Translations under genes and position numbers: made by a program
NCBI GenBank assembly: GCA_032249135.1
Contig: JAVVGL010000015.1
Coordinates: forward strand, 1-53,531
Source of the DNA: Candidatus Calescibacterium sp.
Lineage (GTDB): Bacteria; Calescibacteriota; Calescibacteriia; Calescibacteriales; Calescibacteriaceae
DNA: 53,531 nt
Direction of reading: 5' to 3'
Shown: positions 40,100-47,848 of the stretch, in pieces
Position numbering within the stretch: position 1 is the stretch's first letter
Layout of the letters: each line of letters opens with the position of its first letter
The notes under the pieces: generated by a model
What the model saw: only the letters and a program-made list of their open reading frames with translations
Database searches by the model: none
What the model was told of the DNA's origin: nothing

Positions 40100-40213
40100 A
40101 AAATAAATTATTAATCTTGAAGCAGAAAAATGACTAATCTGATTAAAACTTCAAATTTAAAAAATAAAAGCTATTTCTATCACTTAAAATTTCTGTTGTC
40201 TAAAATTATTTTG

Positions 40214-40489
40214 ATGAAAATTACGGGTGAAACAAAGAGGATAAAACCAAAGTACACTCAAACGGTAAGAATACCGAAAAAATTCAAATCTCTGTTTTGG
40301 GATTGTCCAAATGGGAAAACATATCTTGAAAAATTTATTTTGCGCATTTTAAATTATGGAAGTTTCAAAGATATAAAATGGCTCTATAAAAAATATAAAA
40401 ATGAAACATTTGATATAATCACAAGGTATGATGATATAAAAAAAGGTGTAAAGTTCTGGATAAAATTTTGGCATGAAAGAGGAGATTGA
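40214..40489 (+). CDS. DUF6922-like putative antitoxin
   Basis: IPKKFKSLFWD...FILRILNYG...DIKWL...Y; overlaps the downstream AbiEii gene; ATG 40214 likely start. Confidence 0.7.
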   Translation: MKITGETKRIKPKYTQTVRIPKKFKSLFWDCPNGKTYLEKFILRILNYGSFKDIKWLYKKYKNETFDIITRYDDIKKGVKFWIKFWHERGD

Positions 40490-41081
40490 AAACCTGAAGG
40501 AAAAAATTGAAAAAATGAAGAAAATTTCAAGAGAAATTCAAGCATTATTTAGGAACTTTTATCTTGCAGGTGGGACTGCTCTTATGTTGAAACATAAACA
40601 TAGGATAAGTAAGGACTTGGATTTCTTTTCAGAAAAACCCTTTTCCTTTTTAAGACTTTCGTCAAAAATAAGAAGATTTTTCAAAGTCTCAAAGGAGGAA
40701 AGATTTGAAGATAATATAGATTTTATAATTGATGATATAAAAGTATCTTTCGTATTTTTTCCGTTCAAAAATATAAAACCAATTGAGAAAATAGAAGGTA
40801 TAAAAGTCGCATTAGATTATGACATTTTCCTCAATAAAATATATTCTGCGGGAAGAAGGATAGAAAGTAAAGATATAGTAGATTTTGCTTTTTTATGGAG
40901 AAAATATAGATGGGAAATAAAAAAAGTTAGAAGAGATTTTGAAAGAAAATTCCCTAATCAGAGCTTTGAAATATATTTGGGAGCAATATTTTATATTGAA
41001 GATTACCCAGAAATTGATGAGAGTACTGCAAAAATTATAAATGAAATAAAAAAAGAATGGATAGAGAAAAATACTTTTTAG
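40473..41081 (+). CDS. AbiEii/AbiGii-family nucleotidyltransferase toxin
   Basis: FYLAGGTAL...HRISKDLDFF, K....RRIESKDIVD. Confidence 0.88.
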   Translation: MKEEIENLKEKIEKMKKISREIQALFRNFYLAGGTALMLKHKHRISKDLDFFSEKPFSFLRLSSKIRRFFKVSKEERFEDNIDFIIDDIKVSFVFFPFKNIKPIEKIEGIKVALDYDIFLNKIYSAGRRIESKDIVDFAFLWRKYRWEIKKVRRDFERKFPNQSFEIYLGAIFYIEDYPEIDESTAKIINEIKKEWIEKNTF

Positions 41082-42305: not shown

Positions 42306-44285
42306 ATGACTGGTAAGGAATTTCTTGAGAAGAAAGGAATCAAGAAAGATGATATTGTTGGCATAAAAGTAGGAAATAAAATTTTTGATTTGCTCACCCC
42401 TTTACCTGAAAGTGTGTTAACAGAACTAGAAAAAGTCATAGCAGAAAATAAATTAGATAGCTCAAGTTCTAATGTGAAACTTATAAGAATAGATAGTCTA
42501 GATGGATTAGATATTATGAGACATTCTTGTGCTCATGCTCTCGCTCAATCTGTAAAGAGGCTTTTCCCTGAAACAAAGCTTTCTGTTGGTCCAACAACAG
42601 AAGTTGGATTTTTCTATGATTTTTACAGACCGCAAGGTTTCTCAGAAGAAGACTTGAAAAAAATAGAAGAAGAAATGAAAAAAATAAAGAATGAAAACTT
42701 ACCCATAAGAAGATTTGAGCTTAAAAAAGAAGAAGCAATAAAACTATACGAACAAAAGGGAGAAATTTTCAAAATAGAAATACTCAAAGAAATAGAAGAT
42801 GATGTGGTATCATTTTATGAGCAAGGTGAATTTTTGGATCTTTGTAGAGGACCTCATGTGCCCTCAACTGGAATGATAGGGGCGTTCAAACTTACATCAA
42901 TATCTGCTGTACATTTTAGAGGAGATGAAAATGCCCCCCAACTCATAAGAATATATGGTGTAGCGTTTGCAAATGAAGAAGCACTTCAAAACTACTTCAA
43001 GCAACTTGAAGAAATTAAAAAGAGAGACCACAGAAAATTGGGAAAAGAACTTGAACTTTTCATGATAGATGAAGATGAAATAGGACCGGGACTTGTAATA
43101 TGGTTGCCGAAGGGAGCAAAAATAAGGAGAAAAATAGAAAACTTTTGGCTCAAAATACACGAAAAAAAAGGTTATAACCTCGTATATACACCCCATATAG
43201 CAAAAATAAATCTCTGGAAAACTTCAGGACACCTTGACCACTACAGAAAATTTATGTTCCCACCTATGGAGTGGGATAAAGAAGATGTAAAAGAAAAAAA
43301 AGAAGAATCAAAAGATTTTGAAAGGTCAATAGGTTACGGAGGTGAAAAAACTCCATACCAGCTCAAACCTATGAATTGTCCGTTTCACATAATGATTTTC
43401 AAATCAAAAACTCGGTCATACCGCGATTTACCTTTCAGATTGTGTGAGTTTGGAACAGTTTATAGATATGAAAAAAGTGGGGTCCTTCATGGACTTCTTC
43501 GTGTGAGAGGTTTCACACAAGACGATGCCCACATATTTTTGAAAATAGATCAAATAGAAGATGAAGTTTCCGAAATTCTTGAAATAATCAAAGAAATATT
43601 GAGTATGTTCGGATTTTCAGAGTATATGGTTTTTTTATCAACAAGACCAGAAGAAAAAGCAGGTACAGATGATGAATGGGATTTTGCAGAGGAATCTTTA
43701 AAAAAAGCGTTAGAAAAAAGCAAATTGAACTTTGAAATAGATCCCGGAGAAGGGGTTTTTTATGGACCAAAAATAGATTTGAAAATAAAAGATGTTCTTG
43801 GAAGAGTTTGGCAATGCTCAACAGTTCAACTTGATTTTAATTTGCCAAGAAAATTTTCTGCTTTCTATATAGATTCAGATAATCAAAGAAAACCAGTGTA
43901 TATAATTCACCGAGCTATATTTGGGTCATTTGAAAGATTTTTTGGGATATTTATTGAAAACACAGCAGGAAACTTTCCCCCATATTTTGCTCCTATTCAG
44001 TGTGTAGTAATAAGTGTCAAGGAAAATTCGCAAGATTACGCTTCATTTATATATAATCTTCTTTCAGAAAATGGGCTTGACTGCGAGTTTGACTTAGAAA
44101 CAGGAGAACGATTATCAAAGAGAATAAGAAACTGGGAAGTTGCAAAAGTTCCATTTATGATAGTTATTGGAGAAAAGGAAAAAGAAGAAAAAACAATAAC
44201 AATAAGAGAAAAAGGTGGTTCGATAAAAACTTTATCAATAGAGGAGGGAATAAAATACATTTTATCAAAATGCAGTATAGGGTAG
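42306..44285 (+). CDS. thrS: Threonine--tRNA ligase
   Basis: RHSCAH, DLCRGPHVP, RDHRKLG, LKPMNCPFH, RVRGFTQDDAH, FYGPKID, HRAIFGSFERF. Confidence 0.98.
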   Translation: MTGKEFLEKKGIKKDDIVGIKVGNKIFDLLTPLPESVLTELEKVIAENKLDSSSSNVKLIRIDSLDGLDIMRHSCAHALAQSVKRLFPETKLSVGPTTEVGFFYDFYRPQGFSEEDLKKIEEEMKKIKNENLPIRRFELKKEEAIKLYEQKGEIFKIEILKEIEDDVVSFYEQGEFLDLCRGPHVPSTGMIGAFKLTSISAVHFRGDENAPQLIRIYGVAFANEEALQNYFKQLEEIKKRDHRKLGKELELFMIDEDEIGPGLVIWLPKGAKIRRKIENFWLKIHEKKGYNLVYTPHIAKINLWKTSGHLDHYRKFMFPPMEWDKEDVKEKKEESKDFERSIGYGGEKTPYQLKPMNCPFHIMIFKSKTRSYRDLPFRLCEFGTVYRYEKSGVLHGLLRVRGFTQDDAHIFLKIDQIEDEVSEILEIIKEILSMFGFSEYMVFLSTRPEEKAGTDDEWDFAEESLKKALEKSKLNFEIDPGEGVFYGPKIDLKIKDVLGRVWQCSTVQLDFNLPRKFSAFYIDSDNQRKPVYIIHRAIFGSFERFFGIFIENTAGNFPPYFAPIQCVVISVKENSQDYASFIYNLLSENGLDCEFDLETGERLSKRIRNWEVAKVPFMIVIGEKEKEEKTITIREKGGSIKTLSIEEGIKYILSKCSIG

Positions 44286-44779
44286 GAAGGAATATAAAAG
44301 CAAAACAAGTAAGGGTAATAGGAGAAGACGGAAAACAAATAGGCATTCTTCCTCTGGAGGAGGCTCTAAAAATAGCTGAGGAGAAGGGGCTTGACCTTGT
44401 AGAAATAGTACCAAATGCCGATCCGCCAGTTTGCAAAATAGTTGATTTCGGAAAATTCTTATATGAGCAAAAGAAAAAAGAGAAAGAAATAAAAAAAAGC
44501 CAAAAAGTAATAGAAGTGAAGGAGATGCAGTTCTCTCCAACTATCCAAGACCATGATATAGAAATAAAAGCCAAAAAAATAATAGAGTGGATGAAAGAAG
44601 GAGAAGTAAAGGTGAAACTTGTGGTCAAAGGAAAGGGAAGAGAAGCATTGCATGATGAGGTAATGAGAAAAGTCATAGATAAAGTTATGCAATACCTTTC
44701 AGATTCAGCACAATTTGAAAAACCACCATACAAAGAGGGAAGAAACTTAGTAGCAATAATCACACCAAAAAGAAAGTAA
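44255..44779 (+). CDS. infC: Translation initiation factor IF-3 (start either ATA 44255 or ATG 44270)
   Basis: VRVIGEDGKQIGI, GLDLVEIVPNADPPVCKIVDFGKF, VKEMQFSPTI..HD; follows and overlaps thrS. Confidence 0.95.
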   Translation: MHFIKMQYRVGRNIKAKQVRVIGEDGKQIGILPLEEALKIAEEKGLDLVEIVPNADPPVCKIVDFGKFLYEQKKKEKEIKKSQKVIEVKEMQFSPTIQDHDIEIKAKKIIEWMKEGEVKVKLVVKGKGREALHDEVMRKVIDKVMQYLSDSAQFEKPPYKEGRNLVAIITPKRK

Positions 44780-44874
44780 TGGTTTTTATTTCCTTAAAGA
44801 AGAACTAATTTTGAACATATAAAAAAGGGAAAGGAAAAAATTTCTCTGCTCCGGAATAAAATTAATCAGAGAAG

Positions 44875-45789
44875 ATGAAAACATTTCACAAATTGATTTT
44901 TGGAGATAGCGAAAATATGAAAGAATTAGATAATAATAGTGTCCATCTTGTAGTTACAAGTCCTCCATATTTTAATGCTCCTTTTGATTACCCTGATCTT
45001 TTTCCAAGTTATGATGCATACCTAGATAAAATGACAAAGGTTGCAAGAGAGATAAAAAGAGTACTATGTCCCGGTAGGATAGCATGTATAGTATGTGATG
45101 ATATTTTAATAGAAGACAAAAAATTTCCAATAGTTGCGGATCTCACAAAGATTTTTATAAAAGAAGGATTTGATTACCGCGATAAAATTATATGGATAAA
45201 GCCAGAAGGTTACATTCGTATAAGTAGAAGAAGCGGAGTTGTTTTGCAAAATCCATACCCTATGTACTTTTATCCTGACAACATCCAAGAGACAATTCTT
45301 ATTTTTCAGAAAGGGAAATTTGATTACAAAAGTATTCCTGATGAGATGAGAGGGAAATCAAAAATAGACATTTTGGAGTATAAAGATAAAAAGTGGTATT
45401 TGAACGTATGGAAGATTGTTAATGTCTTACCCTTAAAAAACCGATTAGAAACCGGTATAGCTGCTTTTCCAGAAGAAATACCATACAGGCTTATAAAACT
45501 CTTTTCATATGTAGGAGAAACTGTTCTTGATCCTTTTATGGGTTCTGGTACAACAAATAAGGTAGCAGCAATGCTCAAAAGAAATAGTGTTGGATATGAA
45601 ATTGATTTAGAGCTATTAGAAGTAGTCAAAGAAAAAATAGGATTAAAAAAGAACCCAATATTTTATGATGTTGAGATAATAGTAAGAGATGATGCAAAAC
45701 ATCTCCGCACAGAATTGCAAAATAAAGTTAGCAACAAAATATCAGTGGTAAAAAATGCCAAAAGAATTTCAAAAAGGTCTAACCGATAA
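44875..45789 (+). CDS. Beta-class amino-DNA methyltransferase (probably N4-cytosine)
   Basis: Motif IV VVTSPPY precedes motif I VLDPFMGSGTT; AAFPEEIPYRLI. Confidence 0.93.
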   Translation: MKTFHKLIFGDSENMKELDNNSVHLVVTSPPYFNAPFDYPDLFPSYDAYLDKMTKVAREIKRVLCPGRIACIVCDDILIEDKKFPIVADLTKIFIKEGFDYRDKIIWIKPEGYIRISRRSGVVLQNPYPMYFYPDNIQETILIFQKGKFDYKSIPDEMRGKSKIDILEYKDKKWYLNVWKIVNVLPLKNRLETGIAAFPEEIPYRLIKLFSYVGETVLDPFMGSGTTNKVAAMLKRNSVGYEIDLELLEVVKEKIGLKKNPIFYDVEIIVRDDAKHLRTELQNKVSNKISVVKNAKRISKRSNR

Positions 45790-46192
45790 AGAGAAAGGGG
45801 AATTACTCACAATATTAGAGGAACAAGGTAAAATAAATTGGATAATTTTCCTATTTAGCGAAATATGGAAAGAAAAATTTGTGAAAATGAAAGATACGTT
45901 GATGATAGTTGATGGACATGTTGGTAAAGTATTTTGTAGAACTGGACTATTAAGCGAAATCCTCTATGAGAGAAATCGCCCATATATTATTCAAGCAAGC
46001 AAAATGAGAACGCAGATAGAGAAAATAGTATATGACTTTGGGAAAATTCCATTCTATGTGGACAACGGGGCTTTCTATATTTTTGAAGAAGGCTTTTGCA
46101 CTGATATATCACCAAACTGTAAAAGTTGTCCAATAAGTAAATTGTGCAGAAAATATACAAAGTGGACAGCTTACCAAAAGTGGAAAGATTAA
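45755..46192 (+). CDS. Endonuclease III/HhH-GPD-like protein with [4Fe-4S] motif, short or internally deleted
   Basis: IVDGHVGKVFCRTG (cf. VDTHV.RV..R.G) and CTDISPNCKSCPISKLC (C-x6-C-x2-C-x5-C); only 145 aa. Confidence 0.7.
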   Translation: MPKEFQKGLTDKEKGELLTILEEQGKINWIIFLFSEIWKEKFVKMKDTLMIVDGHVGKVFCRTGLLSEILYERNRPYIIQASKMRTQIEKIVYDFGKIPFYVDNGAFYIFEEGFCTDISPNCKSCPISKLCRKYTKWTAYQKWKD

Positions 46193-46264
46193 AAAATTAC
46201 CATTCGCTAAACAGAATATAAAATAGCAAAAAATAAAATAATAGGTATATATTGGAGGACAAAA

Positions 46265-47848
46265 ATGCAGACATTAGGAGAAAGGATAAGAGAGAAACTT
46301 TTCAAAATATGTCAAGATATAAACAAAGATAAAATACCCCATATACAGTATCCTGAAAGACCAAAAAACGACGAATATGGAGAACTCTTTACAGATATTG
46401 CATTCAAACTCGCTCCAATAATGAAAAAACCTCCAAATGTTATAGCAGAAGAAATAAAAAAAGAGCTACAAGAATTCAATCCTTCCGTTGTGAATGGATT
46501 TATAAATTTCAAAATACCTCCGGAAATCTCAATTGATTTTCTTTTCAACTTCACTAAACCCAAAAATTTTGAGGGACAAAAAATCTTGTCTGAATTCGTT
46601 TCTGCAAACCCTACTGGTCCATTACATATAGGACACGGAAGGATAGCCGCTGTTGGAGATGCAGTTTCACGGATGCTTGAATTTTGTGGAGGAGAAGTTG
46701 TAAGAGAGTTTTACATCAACGACGCAGGAGAACAAATAGAAAAACTTGGACAAACAATAAAAGGGGTTGGCGAAGAATACAAAGGAGAATATACAGAAAA
46801 AATAAAAAAAATTCTCCAAGATGAAATACAAAATTCTGATGCTTTCTCTTTAGGATTTAAAGCTTCAAGAATAATTCTTGAAGATATAAAAAAAACATTG
46901 GAGAGGTTCAGAGTAAGGTTTGAAAATTTCGTTTCAGAAAAAGAAATATCAGAAAAATATATCAAGGATGCTCTTGAAATAATAAGACCTTACACATATG
47001 AACAAGACTCAGCTATTTTCTTAAAAACAACATTATTTGGAGATGACAAAGATAGAGTCGTTATAAAAAGAGATGGAAAACCAACTTATTTTGGAAACGA
47101 TTGCGCATATCATCTTTACAAAATAAAAAGAGGCTTTGACATACTTTTTCAGGTATGGGGAGCAGACCATCACGGATATATAAAAAGAATAGAATCTTTT
47201 CTAAATATCGCAGGATTTAAGGGAAAATTCATAGTCAAGCTTGTTCAGATGGTTCTTTTACTAAAAGATGGAAAAGCAGTTCAGATGTCAAAAAGAGAAG
47301 GAACATTCATAACATTAGATGAGCTCATAGAAGAAGTAGGAGAAGATGCGGCAAGATTCATCTACCTTACAAAAAACTCAGATACACAGCTTGAATTTGA
47401 TATAGATTTAGCTAAAAAGAAAAGTATGGAAAATCCTGTATTTTATGTCCAGTACGCTCATGCAAGAATATCATCTGTATTTGAAGAAGCTAAAACAAGA
47501 AAACTTATTTCAGGATACGAAAAATGGAAAGAAGACCTCAAAGAAAAAATAAGAGCAAAAAATTTTGATGAAGACTTTGATCTTGAAGAGGAAGAAAGAC
47601 ATATATTAGGATTGTGTTGTGTGTTTTACGATGAGGTCATAACATCTTGTGAGCTTTTTGAACCAAGCAGACTTACCTCATTCCTTATGTCCCTTGCAGC
47701 TTCTTTTCACTCATTCTACCAGAAAAAAAAGATTCTCGTAGAAGATGAAAAAATAAGGTTCAAAAGATTACTTGTATGTGAAATGGCAAAAAAAACGATA
47801 AAAACCGGACTTGAACTCCTTGGGGTTTCAGCACCAGATAAAATGTAG
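46265..47848 (+). CDS. argS: Arginine--tRNA ligase
   Basis: EFVSANPTGPLHIGHGR, EFYINDAG, WGADHHGY, MSKREG, NPVFYVQYAHAR. Confidence 0.98.
   Translation: MQTLGERIREKLFKICQDINKDKIPHIQYPERPKNDEYGELFTDIAFKLAPIMKKPPNVIAEEIKKELQEFNPSVVNGFINFKIPPEISIDFLFNFTKPKNFEGQKILSEFVSANPTGPLHIGHGRIAAVGDAVSRMLEFCGGEVVREFYINDAGEQIEKLGQTIKGVGEEYKGEYTEKIKKILQDEIQNSDAFSLGFKASRIILEDIKKTLERFRVRFENFVSEKEISEKYIKDALEIIRPYTYEQDSAIFLKTTLFGDDKDRVVIKRDGKPTYFGNDCAYHLYKIKRGFDILFQVWGADHHGYIKRIESFLNIAGFKGKFIVKLVQMVLLLKDGKAVQMSKREGTFITLDELIEEVGEDAARFIYLTKNSDTQLEFDIDLAKKKSMENPVFYVQYAHARISSVFEEAKTRKLISGYEKWKEDLKEKIRAKNFDEDFDLEEEERHILGLCCVFYDEVITSCELFEPSRLTSFLMSLAASFHSFYQKKKILVEDEKIRFKRLLVCEMAKKTIKTGLELLGVSAPDKM

Follow-up and report, generated by a model that had tools for sequence, protein, structure and literature searches.

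A candidate mobile restriction-modification cassette pairing a beta-class DNA methyltransferase with an endonuclease III-like protein, and its decayed copy in a Candidatus Calescibacterium genome

According to the available sections of one review, the restriction glycosylases that it describes belong to a single fold, HALFPIPE, and PabI, which adopts this fold, excises A from GTAC and is blocked by m6A (PMC10273834). As portrayed in the same sections, R.PabI and R.CcoLI each couple a methyltransferase to an effector that excises bases, the two forming a mobile unit that enters operons and replaces other R genes (PMC10273834), an organization that the two-gene cassette described here appears to share; in contrast, the effector of this cassette is an HhH-GPD protein with four Fe-S cysteines and its methyltransferase is probably an m4C enzyme. 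The latter belongs to the same SPPY class as the methyltransferases of the SuaI and PhoI systems (GG^CC, beta-class m4C methyltransferase), a likeness that is drawn through class and through PADLOC families, since S. acidocaldarius matches both the family of this methyltransferase and that of the restriction endonuclease (REase) found beside it in other genomes. As far as the accessible parts of the sources go, both M.SuaI and M.PhoI belong to the beta class and make m4C in GGCC (PMC3425538; PMC11033074; PMC4752239 supplement), and they are listed as active (PMC4752239). Unlike in these systems, the effector here is not a REase of the PD-(D/E)xK type. It shares with Nth, MutY, Mig and ROS1 the fold (Z 12-15), the HhH lysine, an aspartate and a four-cysteine cluster, whereas it differs from them by its length of 313 aa with insertions, by scores far below the nth and mutY cut-offs, and by belonging to a family that is tied to a methyltransferase, patchily distributed, mobile and often broken. 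The HhH fold is also used against phage DNA by Dag glycosylases and END nucleases, with which our comparison is one of descriptions, in partial sources; as described there, Dag and END target modified DNA, and END has no methyltransferase partner and contains an inactive EndoIII domain. Our literature search, whose scope stopped short of subscription papers, REBASE and bioRxiv supplements, returned no report of an HhH-GPD restriction effector with a cognate methyltransferase.

The window (the whole stretch of DNA analysed, 53,531 nucleotides of contig JAVVGL010000015.1) carries on its forward strand an intact beta-class amino-methyltransferase gene (44875-45789, 304 aa), which matches PF01555 over its full length (E 2.6e-44) and PADLOC MTase_II PDLC03353 (E 4.2e-75), and in which motif IV, SPPY (44959-44970, +), lies N-terminal to the FxGxG-type motif I, DPFMGSG (45529-45549, +). 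It is followed on the same strand by a gene remnant (45755-46192) that encodes 145 of the 313 aa of a protein resembling HhH-GPD/[4Fe-4S] glycosylases/AP lyases; in its intact form, this protein is a candidate restriction effector. This remnant retains VDGHV (45908-45922, +), whose conserved aspartate is Asp221 of the intact protein and aligns to the VDTH aspartate of Nth, as well as C-x6-C-x2-C-x5-C (46097-46147, +), the predicted [4Fe-4S] ligands. Both genes overlap by 35 nt (45755-45789, +); translational coupling is likely, and their starts are 880 nt apart in the window and 886-889 nt apart in 65 of 81 scored loci. The motifs and the overlap are as an earlier note on this DNA had read them from the sequence. 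Profile searches with the 145-aa frame gave no Pfam or PADLOC match at E<=1 and a faint one to mutY (TIGR01084, E 0.0012).

The cassette is flanked by infC and argS, and all of the 1485 nt that separate the stop codon of infC from the start codon of argS (44780-46264) are an insertion, since in a same-genus genome lacking the cassette these two genes lie 43 nt apart. Within the same genus, the cassette also occupies other insertion sites. Displacement of rpmI-rplT by the cassette was considered and rejected: the earlier note had placed the pair where these genes usually follow infC, which is at odds with the empty infC-argS site in the same genus and with rplT lying on another contig. In relatives without the cassette at this site, infC is followed by other genes, and across the family infC is uncoupled from rplT, which is found elsewhere (window 44270-46265; L103, L112-L114). 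A foreign base composition was likewise rejected, the GC content of the cassette (0.31-0.32) being like that of its flanks. No nuclease-sized open reading frame lies between infC and argS. A promoter scan of the cassette gave no signal above chance; in one metatranscriptome, contigs span both genes, coverage that is by itself no proof of transcription. Elsewhere in the window, a DUF6922-like gene and an AbiEii-like nucleotidyltransferase gene form a pair (40130-41081, +), the latter falling in a gap of the alignment to the same-site orthologue L078, and another contig of the source genome (C23:26925-27729) carries a second beta-class methyltransferase, in two frames and with 39-50% identity.

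The window copy of the glycosylase is inactive because a deletion of 504 bp, which keeps the reading frame, has taken out Lys189, the lysine of the HhH. When aligned with P0001, a 313-aa relative that is 97% identical, it lacks 168 codons, and with them the whole HhH hairpin, while Asp221 and the Fe-S cysteines are retained; the junction lies at 45830-45841 (+), with a 2-base shared overlap at 45836-45837. With a same-site orthologue as reference, contigs of two sequencing runs skip the deleted segment and show the 2-base overlap at the join. In these runs the deleted form reaches depths of 116 and 363 where the longer one has 39 and about 6, and a third run contains the long form only. This comparison covered 4 of the 22 listed runs, and the window DNA may itself derive from two of the four. 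An assembly artefact was rejected as the cause of the deletion, the deleted form being the deep contig in two runs and coexisting with longer alleles. The internal deletion that had been suspected in the 145-aa protein is therefore real, and the accompanying guess of an orphan methyltransferase also gains ground: with the hairpin and Lys189 of its partner removed, the methyltransferase of the window is probably an orphan without an effector. Other alleles of the same species are broken differently, by frameshifts near codons 110, 125 and 183. The glycosylase is full length in 10 of its 15 listed cluster members, and the methyltransferase in 14 of 15, the remaining one using a later start. One genome holds two copies of the cassette (L001 and L008), with the glycosylase intact in one and broken in the other.

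A search for longer relatives, which the earlier note had proposed, retrieved 236 candidates, of which 139 proteins, most of them 311-319 aa long, passed E<=0.001; the best longer relative of the window frame is 97% identical and the most distant homologues are 27-33% identical. The structure model of intact P0001 (pLDDT 95.3) is almost all helical, and the two-domain, all-helical HhH-GPD fold accounts in this model for residues 9-304. Its best match is E. coli endonuclease III (2abk; Z 15.3, rmsd 2.8, 208 aligned), with which a Deinococcus EndoIII and a queuine salvage enzyme tie within 1 Z unit, followed by Mig (1kea, Z 13.2), ROS1 (Z 12.4) and MutY, at 12-18% identity in the structural alignments; ROS1 is also among the weak sequence matches of the family. 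P0001 does not adopt the HALFPIPE fold of the PabI family, and no HALFPIPE structure is among the 50 structural matches listed for it. Foldseek with the P0001 model gave no match at E<=0.001 (best E 3.5e-3, the same families being ranked), and since the queuine salvage enzyme ties by Z, the modelled fold alone does not reveal function. The GWVGxDxKA segment of the family aligns to GVGxKTA of the host Nth (hhalign probability 91); Lys189 then coincides with the HhH lysine, and Asp221 with the aspartate of VDTH. All 126 aligned homologues have Lys189, 123 have Asp221 (the three others have Asn at this position) and 123-124 have each of the cysteines. Given the established chemistry of endonuclease III, this mapping predicts glycosylase and AP-lyase activity for the intact family, and its cysteines may hold a [4Fe-4S] cluster, in keeping with the EndoIII-type, Fe-S identity first assigned to the gene.

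Members of this family are not ordinary Nth or MutY enzymes, a possibility that the earlier note had named as fatal to its proposal. Indeed, P0001 scores 16.5 bits against the mutY profile (TIGR01084), for which the cut-off is 286.5, and has no match to the nth profile (TIGR01083) at E<=0.1; the host genome carries two separate HhH-GPD genes besides the cassette remnant; and the family is linked to a methyltransferase. Of 108 glycosylase loci in bacterial and archaeal genomes, 96 have next to the glycosylase a methyltransferase at least 50% identical to that of the window (in divergent orientation in one of them); the other 12 comprise 10 loci with too little upstream DNA, one lone fragment and one locus with a different SPPY methyltransferase. 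Conserved linkage, which had been proposed as a check, is consequently found in nearly all loci with upstream DNA. Beyond the 108 loci, two more lone glycosylase fragments and one short broken piece were found; no glycosylase was found in viral contigs and plasmids, nor in 178 genomes of one further phylum, a search run without a positive control. The genes flanking the pair differ between hosts, which indicates that the pair moves as a unit. At L087 (1825-3907), the glycosylase is 50% identical and its partner is another kind of SPPY methyltransferase (30% identity); the flanks of this locus (CCGG 1/21, GGCC 5/22) possibly point to another specificity.

Viewed from the methyltransferase, the same slot houses a REase in some loci and the glycosylase in others. 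A search anchored on this gene found it in 15 of 201 and 4 of 79 genomes, that is, 19 loci, in which the effector position is filled by a REase_II of the PDLC03572 family (12 loci), the glycosylase (3), a convergent REase_II of another family (1) or neither (3, one of which ends at a contig end). The PDLC03572-family proteins have a conserved D-E...E-x-K pattern (PADLOC E 4.8e-101 for the reference copy), and no name for them came from Pfam, NCBIfam, PDB, plasmid, phage or Atlas searches. This REase was found in none of 10 glycosylase genomes, nor in the source genome, and conversely, in the first set of 201 genomes, the glycosylase was found in 3, which are not of the REase type, all these genomes being incomplete; the second REase family, PDLC03542, had no match anywhere in the own-genome search, which makes it uninformative. 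In the genomes covered, no conventional REase was found with the intact pair, the other observation that would have spoken against the proposal. In a methyltransferase tree of 39 rows (16 of 50 glycosylase rows kept, two long-branch rows omitted), glycosylase and REase partners interleave, three glycosylase-partnered methyltransferases nesting in a REase-partnered clade, and a single clade of glycosylase-partnered methyltransferases was rejected (delta logL 369) in a fast constrained search for which the program warned of too few replicates. This interleaving and the swap within the slot are our strongest argument that the glycosylase would do the job of the REase. The methyltransferase also appears in other contexts: a same-genus genome (L107:1618-5577) has in a row a second methyltransferase, an IS240/IS6-type transposase, the homologue of the window methyltransferase and a Type II REase, and on a contig of a viral collection (L117:2195-6443) the methyltransferase has a weak match to REase_II on one side and a gene with a SIR2 domain on the other. 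The Sulfolobales viruses STSV1, STSV2, YNP1 and YNP2 possess orphan homologues (54-64% identity), and no glycosylase partner was found in two annotated viral methyltransferase regions; a viral methyltransferase without partner fits an anti-restriction use.

A methyltransferase adjacent to a separate effector gene, in a slot shared with REase_II, is the arrangement of Type II restriction-modification (R-M) systems, and we consider it likely, from these genomic comparisons, that the pair is a mobile two-gene cassette of this sort. Its effector would then be an HhH restriction glycosylase/AP lyase in place of a phosphodiesterase, a reading that we hold with good though not full confidence and that gives substance to the R-M-like system with an HhH-GPD effector surmised in the earlier note, being supported by the linkage to the methyltransferase, the absence of the REase from glycosylase genomes and the swap seen from the methyltransferase side. 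The methyltransferase, whose class is given by its motifs, would methylate the exocyclic amino group of a base within a short palindrome, probably producing GG(m4)CC. The intact 313-aa partner would recognize the unmethylated site and excise a base, the inner C being a first guess; Lys189, by residue mapping and by the chemistry of endonuclease III, would form a Schiff base and nick the backbone by beta-elimination, and, if both strands of the palindrome were attacked in this way, a double-strand break with damaged ends would follow.

Regarding the target, no other 4-base palindrome is as depleted as GGCC in the host flanks (183 occurrences against 891 expected, over 317 kb); CTAG comes next at 0.39. 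In some hosts this depletion is selective (e.g., 7/94 and 7/41), and unrelated viral loci stand at 0.81; at L082 (6/6) and L086 (13/16) there is no depletion of GGCC. Controls within phyla, made after omission of regions shorter than 8 kb (5 of 40 in one set, 2 of 20 in the other), were less clear: in the first, GGCC was at 0.33 in carriers versus 0.39 in non-carriers (p 0.31), and ACGT and TCGA differed more; in the second, it was at 0.02 in carriers versus 0.74 in non-carriers, but 10 other palindromes differ too. The source genome ranks GGCC fourth (CTAG 0.09, TCGA 0.15, ACGT 0.20, GGCC 0.29) and also avoids the 6-mers CTNNAG and GTNNAC, a strong palindrome avoidance that suggests long exposure to many R-M systems. 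Among 14 control genomes, the PADLOC family of the methyltransferase matches four and the PDLC03572 REase family one, S. acidocaldarius, which is also among the four. In the available text of one source, SuaI/M.SuaI, with GG(m4)CC, is the sole R-M system described for this organism (PMC5809426). No depletion of GTAC (22/22) or GGCC (16/13) was found in 6.9 kb of STSV1 DNA, in which a modified C in GTAC has reportedly been described. Because the within-phylum controls did not single out GGCC and because of this STSV1 modification, we regard GGCC with m4C protection, suggested by these sequence comparisons, as somewhat better than an even bet.

The way the cassette decays bears on the relationship between its two genes. 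Across the 96 linked loci there are 23 broken glycosylases and 3 broken methyltransferases (over 28,815 and 26,712 codons, respectively); sequencing errors should strike both genes equally. After merging near-identical loci into 86 groups, neither gene is broken in 63, only the glycosylase in 20, only the methyltransferase in 1 and both in 2; the bias of 20 versus 1 (binomial p 2e-5, related loci not being independent) fits a toxic effector that depends on its methyltransferase. It also fits a dispensable accessory gene, and would be expected if the methyltransferase were useful alone and its partner merely accessory. Apart from a single locus, L111, no intact glycosylase was found without an intact neighbouring methyltransferase where upstream DNA is available. 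At L111, a methyltransferase that is twice frameshifted, with motif I changed, adjoins a glycosylase whose frame is open and whose key residues are all present, and no second close methyltransferase was found in this genome (88% complete). This locus contradicts the R-M reading, although polarity acting on the coupled gene could explain it, as could another methyltransferase.

L111 is indeed what would be tolerated if the protein were a modification-dependent defence glycosylase, Dag- or ROS1-like, which excises a modified base (m5C or a phage hypermodification) and for which the methyltransferase is a passenger or keeps the host site unmarked. Such HhH-fold enzymes acting on modified phage DNA exist, as reported in the accessible text of a preprint (10.1101/2025.10.29.685425), and ROS1 is among both the structural and the weak sequence matches. 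We nevertheless judge this explanation unlikely: L111 is the sole exception to the company of an intact methyltransferase, the word "methyltransferase" is absent from the available text of the Dag paper, the END nucleases as described have no methyltransferase, and the swap with Type II REases would be left without explanation. The earlier note had left open whether the effector acts on unmethylated or on modified DNA; the comparative evidence favours the former over the latter for the intact family.

Lopsided decay would also be expected of a repair gene, whose loss can be tolerated, and a Mig- or Vsr-like enzyme correcting mismatches or lesions at methylated sites in hot habitats would suit the many thermophiles among the hosts; the thymine-DNA glycosylase Mig also shares the fold. 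Mig and Vsr, however, serve C5-methyltransferases, and m4C or m6A is not deaminated to thymine; in every locus where a partner was seen, it is an amino-methyltransferase and not a C5-cytosine one. Moreover, a repair helper should accompany the REase, whereas REase-partnered methyltransferases have no glycosylase and glycosylase-partnered ones no REase, and Mig, according to the part of the source available, has Tyr at the position of the HhH lysine (PMC9945173), where Lys189 is invariant in this family. A repair role appears accordingly improbable, even more so than action on modified DNA. Least probable of all, and by our estimate very much so, is a role other than that of a glycosylase, with the HhH fold serving as a regulator that sits on the site or cutting through a different chemistry. 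Catalytically inactive EndoIII domains do serve as sensors in END nucleases, as far as these are described, the fold is common to nucleoside hydrolases, and three of 126 homologues have Asn at position 221; on the other hand, the near-complete conservation of Lys189 and Asp221 points to catalysis, and the model, occupied by HhH-GPD from residue 9 to residue 304, has no fused nuclease domain.

The R-M reading with a base-excising effector hence makes the intact family a well-supported candidate, on comparative grounds, for a second fold of restriction glycosylase. In its most specific form, it would represent a second, independently evolved class, whose EndoIII-fold [4Fe-4S] enzymes attack GGCC when it is unmethylated, taking out a base that is not damaged (perhaps cytosine) and then breaking the strand through an AP-lyase activity of their own. 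N4-methylcytosine would protect the site, and on a single methyltransferase lineage these enzymes would have taken the place of conventional REases repeatedly, in bacteria and in archaea; taken as a whole, this chain is tentative, and we give it slightly less than an even chance. Intact natural pairs of methyltransferase and glycosylase exist, and the family is a possible source of a thermostable, sequence-specific and methylation-sensitive glycosylase. If the proposal is true, some apparently orphan methyltransferases would be explained, because Pfam and PADLOC do not flag the HhH-GPD partner, and restriction by base excision would have two origins, the later-recognized one lying in the repair fold that is commonest of all.
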